This document shows positions 1 to 4,759 of a stretch of DNA of 5,410 bases, piece by piece (positions within the stretch are counted from its first letter, which is position 1; each line of letters begins with the position of its first letter). The position numbers were made by a program, and so were the translations under genes. Origin of the DNA: a virus (Duplodnaviria > Heunggongvirae > Uroviricota > Caudoviricetes); IMG/VR virus record IMGVR_UViG_2737471817_000013; one strand, 5' to 3'. The notes under the pieces were generated by a model that was given only the letters and a program-made list of their open reading frames with translations, did no database searches and was not told the origin of the DNA.

Positions 1-1818
1 TTAATTTTTACTATCGTCATTAGTGACCGATACACATGATGGCATCCAGTCTTCTGATTCCTCCGTCAGTGTCACGTTTGAACGAAAACCGTGCTTCGTT
101 TTCCGTTTCATATACTCCCTGCCATATTCCGCCATTGCCCCCGGCATATCTTTACCGAAGCGCGTCAGTGTTACAGGTTTACCAAACCCATGTGCCCTCA
201 TATAAGCCAGATAGGCATGATAGAGATACCTACGTGGGCTGAATGGCACAATTTCAGCATTACCCACTAACAGGCCATCACACATTACCGACGCCATGAG
301 ATAGCCGCAGAAGTCCACCAGCGAATCCCCCTCTCGCTTTATCGCCAGTGCTTCTTCAGATTTCTGCTGCTCATATAACAGGCGTCTGGCTTCGTCCTGG
401 TCAGCAAACCGTGTAAGCAGATGGCGAATCACTACCGCCAGCTCACCTTCTATTTTTTCCGCCAGCATGGGGTCGCGCTCGTTCTCCGGTACAACCTCCG
501 AAAAATTGAATATCACCCGACGACGTGAGATCCCCCCGCTGCGGTCACTGAATGACATGGCGTTATTGTTCACCGCCAGCACGACCGCCTGAATGCGTGT
601 TGAGTAGGGGGCTTTATGCTTCGGGTCGATTGCCACCTTGTCACCGCCTGTAATGGCCTTAATTCCTGCGCCATCACCAGCGTAGCGGGTCATATCCGGC
701 ATGATAATCAGCGAAAAGCCAACCACTAACGCGCGTTCCCTTGCATCTTCCAGCGCCTTCATGCTTGCCGATACTGTGTTGGCCTTACCTGCCAGCATGG
801 TGCAAATCTCCGCCATCACGCTTTTACCACTTCCCCCTGGACCTGTTACCTCAATGAATAACTGCCAGTCGTACCGGTTCGCCAGCACCATGAATAATGC
901 AGCCAGCACGCGATCCGCCTTGCGGTCATTCTCAGCCACCGAACGGCGTAACCACTTCCAGAAATTCGGCGCATGTGTTGCCAGCGTTTCCCCCTCTGCT
1001 GGTGGGCTGAAAGGTAATTCACTGGCAATTAACAACCAGTCGTTTTTGTTATGCTCCCGAAAATTACCTGTTCTGGTATCAAATACCCCGTTACTGAATC
1101 CAATCAGGTTACGGGCTGTATTCCCCATTACAGGCAAACTTAACTTCATGGTATCGACCGCCGATTTAATGGCGTTCTGCGAATAGCTGATCTCCGCATC
1201 AATGAAAATCTGTGCCATAGCTCGCTGTAATTCTTTATCCTGAATCGGCTCCCATACAACGCCGTTGTAATGGTGAACAGTGTCAGAGTCAGCATGAATC
1301 GCCAGTTCACCGCCATAATGTGCCAGGAGAACTTCGCCGCGTTGACTTGCTCCCATCTGGTTAAGCGCCAGTGATGAAGCGTTACCGTCTTTTACCCGCT
1401 CTTTTTTCTTTACAGGCAGTTCAACTACCTTTTTCTTTTCCGCCTGCTCTGCCCGTTCACGTTCCAGATATTCGCGCCAGTTCTCCCGTTTCTGGCTGTG
1501 CATTCCTTCAGGGTAATAATCAGCATCCCTGACACCTGCCACTGCCAGTTTCTGCCCGATGGTATTAACAAGCCCCGGACGCAATAACCCCGCCTGATAG
1601 AGACGCACGCGATAGCGTCCGTCCGGTACGATTTGCAGGTTGTCCAGTTCGGCAAGTTGTTGCTCTCCAAGCCAGACAGGAGGCACGTTATCGCCAGCCA
1701 GTCGCCCGTCCTGTTCCTGCCACTGATTCGCATGTGCCCACGCATCACTACCCGCAAAAATGATGACTTCCGTCATTTTGTCACGCGGCTGGTGTTTTAA
1801 ATTTGGCGCTTTTTTCAT
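1..1818 (-). CDS. P4 alpha-like replication protein (primase/helicase: D5_N-like region followed by P4-family primase C-terminal P-loop ATPase domain)
   Basis: 605-codon ORF ending in TAA at 3..1. ATG at 1818..1816 overlaps the TGA of the upstream ORF (ATGA coupling) and is preceded by GGAGAGAG about 8 nt upstream; the ORF-track start at 1833 is a GTG five codons further up. Walker A GPGGSGKS is encoded at 820..843. Downstream motifs (KAITGGDKVAIDPKHKAP, VNNNAMSFSD, RRRVIFNF) and the upstream NGVFDTRTG block match what I remember of the D5_N / P4-primase C-terminal family. A K/E-rich charged linker is encoded at about 1384..1479. Confidence 0.9.
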   Translation of the reverse strand: MKKAPNLKHQPRDKMTEVIIFAGSDAWAHANQWQEQDGRLAGDNVPPVWLGEQQLAELDNLQIVPDGRYRVRLYQAGLLRPGLVNTIGQKLAVAGVRDADYYPEGMHSQKRENWREYLERERAEQAEKKKVVELPVKKKERVKDGNASSLALNQMGASQRGEVLLAHYGGELAIHADSDTVHHYNGVVWEPIQDKELQRAMAQIFIDAEISYSQNAIKSAVDTMKLSLPVMGNTARNLIGFSNGVFDTRTGNFREHNKNDWLLIASELPFSPPAEGETLATHAPNFWKWLRRSVAENDRKADRVLAALFMVLANRYDWQLFIEVTGPGGSGKSVMAEICTMLAGKANTVSASMKALEDARERALVVGFSLIIMPDMTRYAGDGAGIKAITGGDKVAIDPKHKAPYSTRIQAVVLAVNNNAMSFSDRSGGISRRRVIFNFSEVVPENERDPMLAEKIEGELAVVIRHLLTRFADQDEARRLLYEQQKSEEALAIKREGDSLVDFCGYLMASVMCDGLLVGNAEIVPFSPRRYLYHAYLAYMRAHGFGKPVTLTRFGKDMPGAMAEYGREYMKRKTKHGFRSNVTLTEESEDWMPSCVSVTNDDSKN

Positions 1819-2120: not shown

Positions 2121-2441
2121 TTATCCCCGATTTGAATCAGTATTCGCTTTCTTTATGGCATTTAATGCATCTGTGGCATTTTCAATGGTGCACCGTAACG
2201 AAATATCAAACTGCCCAAGCATTGCCAGTAACAAACCGATATTACCCATATCAATGCGCATAGCCTTTTCGTCATAGTCCTCATTTTCTGACGCATGCCA
2301 CATCAGGCTACCAATTGACGCAACAGCCATTGATATATTGTCAGTAGCCCCATCCGCAGCGGAATAAACCTTTTTAGCAATATCATGCTCACAGTTAAAA
2401 TGCGGATTAATCAGGTACTGGTAATTTGACATATCAGGCAT
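2121..2441 (-). CDS. Hypothetical small protein (106 aa)
   Basis: ATG at 2441..2439 preceded by AGGGGG about 8 nt upstream, overlapping the last codons of the upstream ORF by 8 nt. An alternative ATG lies at 2432. The product is acidic; I recognise no family. Confidence 0.6.
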   Translation of the reverse strand: MPDMSNYQYLINPHFNCEHDIAKKVYSAADGATDNISMAVASIGSLMWHASENEDYDEKAMRIDMGNIGLLLAMLGQFDISLRCTIENATDALNAIKKANTDSNRG

Positions 2442-2799
2442 GGCACACCCCCTGACGAATACGGGCGGCGAATACCATCACGCAGCCAGCCGGGGATTGC
2501 TGGCGTGCTTCCTGTTCGCTGGTGGCCTCGATGTGAATTACGCGCGGTTGTGCCGTGCTCAGGGCGATAAAACGCCAGATAAAATTGTTCTCGCATTTCT
2601 GAATAAACAGCGTGTTTTCTTCGCGCCCTTTCCATGTTGCCGAGATATAGCCCATGTCATTGAGCATCTCGCAGGCATCAACCAGCGTATCAGCAGCTAC
2701 GTGTACAGTGTTTTTACCGTCAGCTATGCAATCACGGTGCACCGCCAGGAAGGTGTATATAAATTTAGGGTGAGTTTGGGTATGCTGTGTTCCAGCCAT
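2434..2799 (-). CDS. Hypothetical protein (121 aa), first gene of the primase-proximal operon
   Basis: ATG at 2799..2797 preceded by GAGG (plus-strand cctc at 2808..2811) 8 nt upstream; TGA stop at 2436..2434. Protein-like composition. It is the C-terminal part of the 510-aa ORF-track frame but has its own start signals directly downstream of an AT-rich promoter region. Confidence 0.65.
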   Translation of the reverse strand: MAGTQHTQTHPKFIYTFLAVHRDCIADGKNTVHVAADTLVDACEMLNDMGYISATWKGREENTLFIQKCENNFIWRFIALSTAQPRVIHIEATSEQEARQQSPAGCVMVFAARIRQGVCHA

Positions 2800-2829
2800 A
2801 ATCGTTACCTCATTTAACGGTTTGGTTAG

Positions 2830-2863
2830 ACGCCCCGCTACTGCCGCAAACAGTTCGGGGCGT
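2830..2863 (-). other. GC-rich stem-loop in the putative 5' leader of the primase-proximal operon
   Basis: ACGCCCCG (2830..2837) pairs with CGGGGCGT (2856..2863) around an 18-nt loop that has an internal CTG/CAG pair. It sits between the inferred minus promoter and the RBS at 2808..2811. No U-tract follows on either strand. Confidence 0.3.
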
Positions 2864-2884
2864 TGTCGTTTACATCCTCTTACT

Positions 2885-2986
2885 GAGGTGTGATTTAAAT
2901 TAAATTTAACTGAATCACAGGTCAAGTATTTTTTGTGATTCTTTTTTGTGTATACTGAATCACATCTTTTGTTTAGGAGAATGCAC
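2885..2986. promoter_or_regulatory. Divergent promoter/operator region with four TGTGATT half-sites forming two palindromes
   Basis: TGTGATT at 2889..2895 and 2934..2940; its reverse complement AATCACA at 2913..2919 and 2958..2964. CTGAATCACA is repeated exactly at 2910..2919 and 2955..2964. Plus-strand -10-like TATACT at 2951..2956, then AGGAGA (2975..2980) and ATG at 2987. Minus-strand -35-like TTGACC (plus 2920..2925) and -10-like TAATTT (plus 2897..2902) with a 17-nt spacer, pointing toward the 2799 start. Confidence 0.55.
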
Positions 2987-3292
2987 ATGGCAAAAAACAC
3001 TATCAACGACAAATCAAAACAGATTTCAATTCGTATCCCACATGATGCTTTTGAAGGCATGGAATCCGTAAAACTGGACGGTGAAAGCAACGCCGGATTC
3101 ATAGTAACCGCCATGCGCGGTGAGATCGCCCGCCGCCAGGCAGAAGGAAGCGGAGAAAATCCCCTGGTTTCTTCGCTCGATGCGCTGGCGCAGGTGGAAA
3201 AAATCGGAGTCAAAGCTGCCGAGGAGATCGGGCAGCTCGTCACCGTCGCACGTGAAGAACTCCAGCGCCGCAAGGCCAAAGAATCAGAATAA
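2987..3292 (+). CDS. Ribbon-helix-helix DNA-binding protein, Arc/Mnt-like repressor with a C-terminal helical tail (101 aa)
   Basis: AGGAGA 6 nt upstream of ATG 2987; TAA stop at 3290..3292. Good codon usage. N-terminal KQISIRIP (beta strand), HDAFEGMESVKL (helix A), G-E-S-N-A-G turn and FIVTAMRGEIARR (helix B) follow the RHH pattern of P22 Arc/Mnt (GRS-N-SE turn). The C-terminal 45 residues are A/E/K/L-rich, consistent with an oligomerisation helix. The ORF-track start at 2948 is a GTG inside the promoter and is not preferred. Confidence 0.75.
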   Translation: MAKNTINDKSKQISIRIPHDAFEGMESVKLDGESNAGFIVTAMRGEIARRQAEGSGENPLVSSLDALAQVEKIGVKAAEEIGQLVTVAREELQRRKAKESE

Positions 3293-3349
3293 TAACTATC
3301 ATCGCCGTGGTGTGAGGAACTCCGGCGCATTGCTTTACAGGTACACAGA

Positions 3350-3544
3350 ATGACCAACAAAGAATCAACCAATACACCATCACCGGCACGGAAAAGACGG
3401 CGCAGAAAGATAGAGCACGAATCAGAAAGATTCGCGCCATGTGCTTTTGCCCTTGAGCAATTCCTTAAAGAGTACAGGCGCACAAAAATGGGATCGCATA
3501 CCTGGAAAACATCGCGGCATGGCAATGTTAAAGAGCATGAATAG
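3350..3544 (+). CDS. Doubtful small basic ORF (64 aa) with an arginine-rich N-terminal stretch (ARKRRRRK)
   Basis: ATG at 3350 with a weak AGGT about 8 nt upstream; TAG stop at 3542..3544. It uses several AGA/AGG/CGG/ATA codons that are rare in enterobacterial genes, so coding status is uncertain. Confidence 0.25.
   Translation: MTNKESTNTPSPARKRRRRKIEHESERFAPCAFALEQFLKEYRRTKMGSHTWKTSRHGNVKEHE
3415..3437 (-). terminator. Candidate intrinsic terminator for the alpA operon (hairpin followed by a U-rich tract on the minus strand)
   Basis: GCACGAATC (3415..3423) pairs with GATTCGCGC (3429..3437) with one mismatch around the loop AGAAA. On the minus strand the hairpin is followed by TCTATCTTTCTGCGCCGTCTTTTCC. 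The stem is modest, so this is weakly supported. Confidence 0.3.
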
Positions 3545-3966
3545 CCCACCAGCAAGCCAGCACACTGATCACATTGCCCACCAGCCGCAAATCTGGCATT
3601 GTTGGCAATGTGTTCAAGTGTGTAGCTTTCCCACTGGTGGCCCTCTGCAGTCGCCTTTGTTTTATCCAGAACGAAATCAGACATCAGATTGATCAGCACC
3701 TGGTGACCTGACAAAATCGCATCAGTCACGCCACCAGCAAAATTTTTTGCTTTCCGGACAGCGTGGCCAACGGCATTTTGCAGCGAAATATTCTGCATTT
3801 CTGGCGTGCTGTAGTAACGGTGATCAGTGCCTTCACTCTGTGCGACCACAACGCTATAATCTGCCTCGTAGACAGTAAGCAATATGGCGCAGTAGGCTAT
3901 TCGTTCACAAAGGCGCTCCGGCAACGGGGCGCTTTCTCTTTTTGTAACGGTCAGAGCGTTACACAT
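3545..3966 (-). CDS. Hypothetical protein with a well-supported start but an undeterminable 3' end (no in-frame stop before 2434)
   Basis: ATG at 3966..3964 preceded by GGAGG (plus-strand cctcc at 3976..3980) 9 nt upstream; the start abuts the stop of the upstream gene. The first ~140 codons look protein-like (VTDAILSGHQVLINLMSDFVLDKTKATAEGHQWESYTLEHIANNARF). Beyond about 3545 the translation becomes S/R/C/L-rich and is antisense to plus-strand ORFs. 3545 is a nominal boundary, not an observed stop. Confidence 0.4.
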
Positions 3967-4759
3967 GGCTGTTTTCCTCCATGCGACGGGCTAACCAACG
4001 CTGCGAAAGACGAATTAATTCAGCTTTCCGCTGGTGGTAGCCCTGGCCTAACTCAATCAGCGTGATATTGCTCTGCTCAAGGTAAGAAAGGTGCTCAAGC
4101 TGCAACGTGCTCATGTGGTCGCGTGGTTCGCCTGTGATGCCGTTCGCCTGCGCCCACTGTTTTGCAGTCATGCCACCCAGCACGATACGCGCCAGCATAT
4201 TGGCTTCCGTGGTGTAGTGGTGCTGGAACGTGTTTTTACCCAGTTCAGCCCGGTACGCCTCCAGCGCGGCACACATTGGCTTAAAGTAGCTGGCAACGGT
4301 GATACGGGCTTTCAGTTCCCGGCGTAATGCTGCGGAACGCACTGGCGCTACCTTGTGTAGCTCCTCCTCGCATTTGATAAAGTACTGGCGAACGGCGCGG
4401 CCCTGTTCGGTACGTTCGACCATCGCCAGTTCTTTCGCCATATTCACTGTGATGATGTACTCAAGAGCGGTTTGCTGGCGAGATTTTGCGCTCACCGGAT
4501 CGGGTCGGCTCAAATATTCAACAACCTCATAATCCACGCCTTCCGTGAACCCGTATTCTTCAATGCGCCCCTTGATCCACGAACGGAAAACGCGCCCTAC
4601 ACCTAACGCCTTATGTAACGCTCTGGCGCTAACAATAGTGGTTTCACGCCCACCAATAACGCCGGAAATAACCGGAATAATTTCAGCGAAATTTTGCAGA
4701 TTCTGTTTTTCAGGCCGAACGAAGCCCCGCCCCTGTACAGGCGTATATCCAGTATTCAT
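3959..4759 (-). CDS. Phage regulatory / antirepressor-like protein (Rha or KilA-N/ORF6N-type N-terminal DNA-binding region with ORF6C-like C-terminal region), 266 aa
   Basis: ATG at 4759..4757; TAA stop at 3961..3959. The N-terminal segment TIVSARALHKALGVGRVFRSWIKGRIEEYGFTEGVDYEV and the C-terminal segment TEANMLARIVLGGMTAKQWAQANGITGEPRDHMSTLQLEHLSYLEQSNITLIELGQGYHQRKAEL resemble phage Rha/Ant-type regulators as I remember them. The exact Pfam family is not certain. The RBS is weak. Confidence 0.75.
   Translation of the reverse strand: MNTGYTPVQGRGFVRPEKQNLQNFAEIIPVISGVIGGRETTIVSARALHKALGVGRVFRSWIKGRIEEYGFTEGVDYEVVEYLSRPDPVSAKSRQQTALEYIITVNMAKELAMVERTEQGRAVRQYFIKCEEELHKVAPVRSAALRRELKARITVASYFKPMCAALEAYRAELGKNTFQHHYTTEANMLARIVLGGMTAKQWAQANGITGEPRDHMSTLQLEHLSYLEQSNITLIELGQGYHQRKAELIRLSQRWLARRMEENSHV

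Follow-up and report, generated by a model that had tools for sequence, protein, structure and literature searches.

Layout of the locus

The subject of this analysis is a stretch of DNA at positions 3293-3544 of a 5,410-nt sequence, termed the window, whose numbering is used for all coordinates. The stretch holds a spacer and a 64-codon open reading frame (ORF) that follow a gene for a ribbon-helix-helix (RHH) protein on the plus strand, and the three lie antisense within a 510-codon frame free of stop codons on the minus strand. The window is an Escherichia coli phage-inducible chromosomal island (PICI) at tRNA-Thr, since its gene order and the tRNA-Thr site agree with the published layout of Gram-negative PICIs, which comprises integration, Bro, replication and late zones (PMC6092414, PMC10111431). 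A 1.3-kb query from the window (2800-4100) was 99.8% identical to the E. coli chromosome NZ_CP083263, in which the island adjoins tRNA-Thr. On the minus strand this island carries int, a hypothetical gene, alpA, antA/antB, an unannotated gap, an Icd-like gene, several small genes, and genes for DUF4222, primase, ProQ/FinO and PerC; on the plus strand there are two genes only, which PGAP annotates as a YlcI/YnfO family gene and a 64-aa hypothetical protein, WP_071779903. In the window itself, AlpA matched PF05930 (Pfam), and antB ends the conventional part of the alpA operon, upstream of the long minus-strand frame. The features in and around the stretch are as follows.

2434..2799, minus strand: Icd-like gene, 121 aa, with its own Shine-Dalgarno (SD) sequence GAGG and an ATG at 2799; NF033153, 79 bits, residues 73-116; annotated by PGAP
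2434..3966, minus strand: 510-codon stop-free frame; its ATG at 3966 overlaps the antB stop codon (ATGTGTAA), with GGAGG before it
2884..2964, no strand assigned: putative divergent promoter/operator region between the RHH and Icd-like genes, with repeats
2987..3292, plus strand: RHH gene, YlcI/YnfO N-domain family, 101 aa; NF041551, 65.3 bits against a cut-off of 30, residues 9-50; annotated by PGAP
3293..3349, plus strand: spacer of 57 nt from the RHH stop codon to the ATG of the small gene; hairpin arms 3302-3308/3322-3328; CAGG at -13..-10
3350..3544, plus strand: probable small gene, 64 codons, basic protein, second cistron of the RHH operon; begins MTNKESTNTPSPARKRRRRK
3414..3438, minus strand: hairpin, a palindrome inside codons E22-P30 of the small gene
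3546..3600, no strand assigned: conserved junction segment directly after the small-gene stop codon, with two minus-strand Chi sites
3636..3663, plus strand: predicted intrinsic terminator of the RHH/small-gene operon; stem 3636-3642/3649-3655, then TTTGTTTT
3910..3945, plus strand: second strong predicted terminator; 11-pair stem, then CTCTTTTTGT; free energy (dG) -22.6 kcal/mol, z -3.5
3959..4759, minus strand: antB, an AntA/AntB-family (Bro network) gene; PF08346, E 2.5e-23; named by PGAP

On its antisense course the long minus-strand frame crosses first the small gene and the spacer and then the RHH gene and the promoter region; its terminal part is the Icd-like gene, whose domain makes up residues 462-505 of the 510 codons. 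Sequence matching a 252-bp query for the stretch was present in 1603 of 5426 complete E. coli genomes (about 30%). The PGAP annotation under this match differs by genome: some have a hypothetical protein on the plus strand, others a long ORF on the minus strand and others no call at all, and the antisense nesting would explain these three incompatible NCBI annotations of the same stretch. RefSeq calls were also inconsistent at four loci (L089, Nissle 1917; L090, O157:H7; L093; L094), where the long minus-strand 'Icd-like' or hypothetical ORF is sometimes partial or a pseudogene and overlaps the YlcI gene. For the comparisons below, 80 IMG/VR loci and one Shigella locus were used as relatives, giving 81 loci with 41 distinct nucleotide versions of the small ORF.

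The 64-codon ORF is very probably a gene

An earlier interpretation made from the letters of the window (the sequence-only reading) had described a 64-aa ORF containing ARKRRRRK as the only ORF in the stretch, with a weak ribosome-binding site and rare codons, and had therefore doubted its translation. The ORF is present at 3350..3544 on the plus strand (MTNKESTNTPSPARKRRRRK...), and both of the features held against it are real: the sequence upstream, ACAGGTACACAGAATG, offers just AGG/CAGG at -13..-10, and the ORF contains three CGG, three AGA, one AGG and one ATA codons. It is not alone, as the ORF listing adds 3240..3440 and 3422..3565 on the minus strand and 3441..3692 and 3120..3353 on the plus strand, and the 510-codon minus-strand frame (2434..3966) spans the whole stretch. 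Against the doubt over translation, the comparative data indicate a real, conserved gene. Among the relatives the small ORF was intact in 81/81 loci, with no plus-strand nonsense codon and with in-frame insertions and deletions only. Its ATG was invariant while positions -1..-9 varied freely, and CAGG at -13..-10 was conserved; three relatives (L030-L032) have AGGAGG instead. Furthermore, synonymous two-base changes were found across the window and two divergent homologues (L095 and L097), at Leu (CTT/CTC/TTA) and Arg (CGC/AGA/CGA) codons, and the same changes would alter the residue in the minus-strand frame, for example from Arg to Leu. Selection on the plus strand can be told apart from selection on the minus strand by these sites, because the two-base changes keep the plus-strand amino acid and change the minus-strand one.

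At the protein level, the small ORF, which PGAP annotates as WP_071779903, matched the phrog_21027 profile with an E value of 4.7e-28 (residues 1-64 against profile positions 1-65 of 65). This full-length match places it, with WP_071779903 and WP_000182301, in the phrog_21027 family, which consists of proteins predicted from sequence. Homologues formed 65 protein clusters of 57-100 aa, down to 52% identity, all of them from Escherichia (including E. albertii) or Shigella. Their alignment is a mosaic, in which several unrelated N- and C-terminal variants surround a common core (E-H-E-S-E-R-F-A-P-C-A-F-A-L-E-K-F-L-K-E-Y-R-R) and all insertions and deletions are in frame; the tail carries the conserved motif R-x-K-x-G-x-(H/Y)-(T/S)-W-K. 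An exhaustive hidden Markov model search of 1.84 billion representatives, drawn from a library clustered at 50% identity, returned only 17 hits, 14 of them on short proteins; the remaining three, at 751-1141 aa, resemble low-complexity noise, and the search yielded no distant homologue of informative value. The divergent homologues retain F-x-L-E-Q-F-L-K followed by (K/R)-R-x-K-x-G-x-(H/Y)-(T/S)-W-K, in which Gly and Trp are invariant. A tblastn search of the small ORF against 50,697 phage records gave no match. In the genomes examined that have no PGAP call under the match, the small ORF was still intact. Given its intactness in all relatives, its invariant ATG, the two-base synonymous changes and a motif of the kind seen in proteins, comparison of the sequences makes it very probable that the small ORF is a real gene.

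Divergent homologues of the small gene were also observed outside the RHH/Icd context, at 2501-2692 of locus L095 and 2501-2698 of locus L097. One lies between DUF2913 and sulfatase genes, and the other lies beside an insertion-sequence transposase gene and an H-NS-like gene; they may be remnants, or they may be a sign that the small gene acts alone.

It could be argued instead that the 64-codon ORF is untranslated and a by-product of keeping the complementary frame open, in which case the plus-strand RNA would be the tail of the RHH mRNA and would extend the antisense overlap with read-through transcripts. Such an explanation would suit the weak SD, the frequency of rare Arg and Ile codons, the similar ratio of nonsynonymous to synonymous change (dN/dS) in the two frames, the absence of a Pfam or NCBIfam family, the low-confidence AlphaFold2 model, the genomes with no PGAP call and the restriction of the family to Escherichia and Shigella. 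We nevertheless judge it unlikely, for it has to contend with an ATG that is invariant amid variable flanks, with the three relatives that have AGGAGG, and with zero plus-strand nonsense codons in 81 loci despite unrelated N- and C-terminal variants. It also sits poorly with Leu and Arg changes that hold the plus-strand residue and alter the minus-strand one, with the Gly, Trp and Lys residues kept in homologues from the library clustered at 50% identity, and with homologues that persist outside the PICI frame context.

The RHH operon and its optional cassette

The RHH gene has a strong SD (AGGAGA) and is the first cistron of the plus-strand operon. Relatives carry several RHH alleles at the same position, namely the 101-aa type and several 59-aa types, and among the related loci the small gene is always the second cistron behind the RHH gene, whatever the allele. 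Upstream of the operon, ACTGAATCACA occurs twice within 2884-2964, 45 nt apart, together with inverted TGTGATT(C)...(G)AATCACA pairs, and an extended -10 element (TGtTATACT) would lie at 2948-2956. The repeats are plausible candidates for RHH operators that overlap both promoters, and the RHH protein is a probable repressor of the island.

Every IMG/VR locus has a spacer of 57 nt between the two cistrons, and L091 has one of 60 nt; both lengths are multiples of three, a point in favor of selection on the long minus-strand frame. Its hairpin was 97.9% paired over 20 distinct sequences. All 23 of the variant stem cells that still pair do so as G.U or U.G on the plus strand, where the minus-strand equivalent is an A.C mismatch; three further stem cells are unpaired, two of them in the window's own sequence. 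Because the variants pair as G.U on the plus strand only, the predicted spacer hairpin is a feature of plus-strand RNA. A sigma-70-like site (CTCACA-16-TATTAT) was also noticed in the spacer on the minus strand (3316-3289), pointing into RHH antisense; it was set aside as a chance occurrence, with two such sites in the region against 1.8 expected.

Downstream of the small gene, the terminator at 3636-3663 was found in 77 of the 81 related loci as well as in the window. At least three stem types occur at this position (GGCGACC/GGTCGCC, GGCCACC/GGTGGCC and GCGGCTCC/GGGGCCGC), with a T-tract after each. On 15 distinct sequences the stem was 97.1% paired, with one compensatory change from G-C to C-G and with G.U variants that pair on the plus strand only, and the T-tract TTTGTTTT was invariant in those sequences. 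The window's own copy is weak, with six pairs of which two are G.U. With its stem and T-tract, its covariation and its place downstream of the stop codon, 3636-3663 has the predicted characteristics of an intrinsic terminator. The second terminator (3910-3945) sits within codons 8-19 of the long minus-strand frame. A peptide of that frame, 'KSAPLPER', which is seemingly conserved in distant long-frame relatives, is the translation of the 3910-3945 hairpin; its conservation may be at the RNA or DNA level.

The borders of the stretch could be placed by comparison with an island that has the RHH gene and no small gene (L086). There the conserved junction segment (..CCAGCAAGCCAGCACACTGATCACATTGCCCACCAGCCGCAAAT..) directly abuts the RHH stop codon, and in all long 'Icd-like' proteins this segment corresponds to FAAGGQCDQCAGLLVGY. 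Because the junction segment follows the RHH stop codon in L086 and the small-gene stop codon in the window, 3293-3544 is, on this alignment, exactly a discrete optional cassette of 252 bp that consists of the spacer and the small gene; the sequence-only reading had singled out precisely these borders.

Seven Chi sites (GCTGGTGG) were counted in the 5.4 kb of the window (315-322, 998-1005, 2518-2525, 3546-3553, 3578-3585, 3731-3738 and 4030-4037), against 0.17 in shuffled sequences, and none of 200 shuffles reached seven. Three minus-strand sites lie within 200 bp after the small-gene stop codon, two of them inside the conserved junction segment. The cluster could possibly reflect RecBCD protection or a hotspot of cassette exchange.

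Possible functions of the small protein

On sequence features, the most likely role of the small protein is that of a nucleic-acid-binding accessory regulator of the island switch. The basis for this reading is its basic arm, a predicted amphipathic helix and the conserved G-x-H/Y-T/S-W-K tail. AlphaFold2 predicted a helix over residues 12-49 of the 64-aa protein, with a mean predicted local distance difference test (pLDDT) score of 61, which is low confidence. A search of PDB sequences with the family profile found nothing significant (best E value 0.2), Pfam, NCBIfam and PADLOC offered no toxin or defence family for the small protein, and PADLOC gave no match for the module as a whole. Judged by gene content, the small protein is dispensable in islands with the RHH gene alone.

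The sequence-only reading had likened the arginine-rich motif to N-type antiterminators. Developed in full, that proposal would make the small protein an N-like arginine-rich antiterminator that binds its own mRNA at the plus-strand hairpin (3302-3328) and allows transcription to pass the terminators at 3636-3663 and 3910-3945 into antB/alpA antisense, which would reinforce quiescence. The N-terminal cluster is indeed basic in character in most variants (ARKRRRRK in the window; RKKQRKN and RKRQRRK among others), the transcript carries, just upstream of the gene, a hairpin whose conservation is specific to the plus strand, and two terminators follow downstream. The order of hairpin, gene and terminator recalls pL-nutL-N of lambda. 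However, the protein matched no N family in Pfam, PHROG function or NCBIfam, and the hairpin, with a 7-bp stem and a 13-nt loop, is unlike boxB. The protein is moreover just 64 aa long, its helix and G-x-H/Y-T/S-W-K tail are better conserved than the basic arm, and the arm is wholly replaced in the P0062-64 and P0164 variants. Conservation of a basic cluster without N homology or a boxB-like hairpin leaves N-type antitermination improbable.

A second suggestion had been that the small protein is the partner of the RHH protein, and in that event the island would be stabilised by the two genes acting as an addiction pair resembling type II toxin-antitoxin systems. An RHH gene followed by a small downstream gene in one operon is the order typical of such pairs, and the RHH protein weakly matched one antitoxin family of Pfam (PSK_trans_fac, Rv0623-like; E 0.015, which does not reach the cut-off). 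Against this, the small ORF has no counterpart among the toxin families of the three databases, and its closest PDB match reached just E 0.2. The two genes also occur apart: many islands have the RHH gene without the small ORF (e.g., L086), and the homologues in L095 and L097 have no RHH gene nearby. In addition, the RHH gene stands at a divergent promoter with operators that would face the replication operon, which fits the role of a repressor. An addiction pair is therefore very unlikely, and an accessory regulator remains the function that we favor for the small protein.

Openness of the long minus-strand frame

No stop codon interrupts the long minus-strand frame over the small ORF in any of the 81 loci, and in 66/81 the frame extends uninterrupted as far as the Icd-like stop codon; in the other 15 it ends in the leader beside the Icd-like start. 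The frame stays open even though relatives differ in total length (about 300-540 codons) and in their leader, RHH allele and upstream gene, and it does so as well with an unrelated N-terminus of the small ORF (L091, 507 codons). In the 187-nt promoter region of the window (39% G+C), the long frame has no stop codon, against six and eight in the other two minus-strand frames. Likewise, 20 of the 27 distinct promoter regions of relatives were stop-free in the long frame, and the other two frames had means of 3.4 and 4.0 stop codons. These data indicate, as far as stop-codon counts can, that the long frame is under selection to stay open.

In minimal islands about 10 nt separate alpA from the ATG of the long frame. 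Proteins homologous to the first 140 residues measure 214-236 aa and go by the NCBI name 'host cell division inhibitor Icd-like protein', and NCBI annotates 'Icd-like' versions of 214-348 aa.

Several further observations concern this frame. A G+C-rich minus-strand hairpin (CGCCCCG...CGGGGCG, 2832-2865, dG -21 kcal/mol) lies just upstream of the SD and ATG of the Icd-like gene; its translation, 'AV(A/T)GRLT', recurs in long 'Icd-like' proteins of many islands, and the long frame stops at or near this hairpin in 15 of the 81 relatives. At 3001-3705 of locus L088 (protein P0067), the first approximately 155 residues of the long frame are fused in frame to the Icd-like leader; an in-frame deletion has removed the promoter region, the RHH gene and all of the small gene but about its last 15 codons, which are left in antisense. 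Locus L033 has a C4 antisense RNA, isrK and c4-a1b1 inside the long frame (3268-3469, minus strand; Rfam, above or near gathering scores). The RHH/small-gene module is present in L033 alongside these RNAs, so RNA-based and RHH-based control can coexist. An Rfam scan of the window gave no match at E <= 1, and hence no C4/CI-type RNA and no isrK.

The minus-strand hairpin at 3414-3438

The hairpin named in the sequence-only reading exists as GGCGCGAATC-TTTCT-GATTCGTGCT at 3438..3414 on the minus strand, with 10 pairs (five G-C and two G.U), a dG of -15 kcal/mol (z = -2.5 vs shuffles) and CTATCTTTCT after the stem. The U-rich run attributed to it is CUAUCUUUCU, which just passes a permissive scan (5 T in 8) but is short and interrupted. 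Folding of the palindrome is just as good on the plus strand, and terminator-like sites in 2700-4100 were at chance level (four vs 1.9 +/- 1.2 in shuffles).

The hairpin was compared across 25 distinct relative sequences. The stem of the window is unique among them, in that a synonymous CAC (His) codon completes the minus-strand stem where the others have CAT. The commonest relatives have a C.A mismatch in the minus-strand stem, the L012 class has a further minus-strand A.C mismatch, from a change that still pairs as G.U in plus-strand RNA, and the L033-L046 class is without any stem (GAACAGGAGAGATTT). In the class with a 66-aa protein, a 6-nt insertion lies between the stem and the T-run. Codons E22-P30, in which the palindrome lies, encode the best-conserved part of the peptide, and E(H/Q)E(S/Q/P)ERFAPCAF is kept throughout, stem or no stem. 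Because stem mismatches go uncompensated in relatives while the peptide is kept, the sequence comparison indicates that the hairpin is a chance palindrome private to one lineage and not a conserved terminator.

The proposal that this hairpin is an intrinsic terminator ending alpA-operon transcripts inside the stop-free frame, with mRNAs of the 3966 ORF left without a stop codon, could draw on its 10 pairs, its stability, the adjacent CUAUCUUUCU and the lack of any other minus-strand terminator-like site between antB and the RHH gene, yet it is extremely improbable given a strong stem in the window sequence alone, a poor U-run that an insertion parts from the stem in one class, a chance count of such sites, and a frame that stays open past it to the Icd-like stop codon in 66/81 relatives. 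The openness of the frame to that stop codon favors read-through over non-stop mRNAs, and the terminator and non-stop mRNA claim can be set aside.

A possible read-through switch

We consider it probable that the cassette belongs to the regulatory ('Bro/immunity') zone of the island, where it supplies the second cistron of an RHH operon lying antisense inside the long frame, with a read-through switch that is proposed by analogy with P4. By the same analogy, minus-strand transcripts probably read through the cassette rather than end inside it. In the quiescent state, the RHH protein would repress the leftward promoter of the Icd-like and replication genes at the repeats, and plus-strand transcription would converge on, and oppose, read-through from upstream. 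On induction, helper-dependent AlpA would drive the alpA-antB transcript, and ribosomes would start at 3966 and translate across the antisense operon. Their translation would keep Rho off the RNA, and transcripts would reach the Icd-like and replication genes.

A more far-reaching version, which we put forward tentatively and as a possibility, is that both strands are translated for different reasons. The plus strand would encode a small basic regulator within the repressor operon long sought for the island, the minus strand would act as a 'ribosome bridge' of which the openness matters and the sequence does not, and a convergent, translation-dependent switch would be the mechanism of PICI induction. 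If true, this would provide a testable mechanism for the silence of the satellite and for the passage of helper-induced transcription through the silencing module, and the convergent-transcription switch would be the induction mode of a PICI family found in about 30% of E. coli genomes.

Several points weigh against these interpretations. The small protein has no support from a family, fold or partner, and in the window its gene combines a weak SD with many rare codons. Values of dN/dS over the small ORF (0.43 for the plus strand and 0.50 for the minus strand) do not discriminate between the strands, since third codon positions are common to the plus-strand ORF and the open minus-strand frame. 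Under synonymous recoding and codon shuffling, the chance of zero stop codons in the long frame was 0.26-0.34 over the RHH gene and 0.25-0.43 over the small gene, which is not significant, and the minus-strand frame is also stop-free in two homologues outside the PICI context. Since the plus-strand genes alone give no significance, the argument for the long frame rests on the promoter region and on the relatives. A tblastn search of the 510-aa frame against 50,697 phage records matched four records, none of them P4. Finally, we infer read-through, Rho dependence and the translation of either strand from sequence.

Comparison with known systems

Published accounts of Gram-negative PICIs of the EcCICFT073 type (Fillol-Salom et al. 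2018) give them a single direction of transcription and no identified repressor, and present AlpA as the activator that the helper phage switches on (PMC6092414). The island described here resembles them in its int, alpA, Bro/Ant-family, Icd-like, DUF4222, primase and PerC genes and in its integration beside a tRNA gene. It differs from them as published in its opposite-strand RHH operon, with or without the small gene, which is unmentioned in these accounts (PMC6092414, and PMC10111431 for the 'Bro zone'). The conservation of this operon contrasts with PICIs that have been published as unidirectional and repressor-less (PMC6092414). A search of the literature on YlcI/YnfO, on RHH proteins with EcCICFT073 and on Icd-like proteins in satellites found no description of this module.

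Among phages, the immI region of P22 (arc/mnt RHH repressors and ant) and those of P1 and P7 (c4 RNA, icd and ant) are similar in that RHH proteins and/or a C4-type RNA govern an antirepressor/Icd module; however, they differ from the present locus in gene order and strands. We know of no homologue of the 64-aa gene in the P22, P1 and P7 immI regions. In P1, translation of icd is needed against Rho-dependent polarity on downstream genes.

The closest parallel to the long frame is eta/kil of P4. In the account given in PMC10111431, kil is the terminal part of a longer ORF, eta (Forti et al. 1999, J Bacteriol 181:5225), whose start lies upstream of an internal, constitutive promoter and whose translation is coupled to that of the alpA homologue. 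According to the same account, translation of eta prevents termination, so that late transcripts read through, and the CI immunity RNA and its target seqA lie inside eta (PMC10111431). The present locus is similar in that a long ORF beginning upstream of an internal promoter closes, in frame, with a short kil/Icd-type ORF, in that coupling links this long ORF to the alpA-operon gene before it (through the ATGTGTAA overlap with the antB stop codon), and in that the frame is open across AT-rich promoter DNA with immunity determinants in its interior. Eta of P4 has about 198 codons, against 510 here. The depletion of stop codons specific to the long frame in promoter DNA lends indirect support to an eta-like translation. 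We regard the parallel as a functional analogy, not as homology, and a Rho-blocking role of the long frame would follow from that analogy. P4 further differs in its C4/CI RNA, whereas the window is without C4 and isrK RNA, although the relative L033 has both. In P4 the CI RNA and seqA sites inside eta are on the same strand as eta; here the opposite strand of the interior carries the RHH/small-gene operon, which codes for proteins and has a putative promoter, operators and terminators of its own. A complete opposite-strand protein-coding operon inside an eta-like frame thus appears to be a new element relative to the P4 design.

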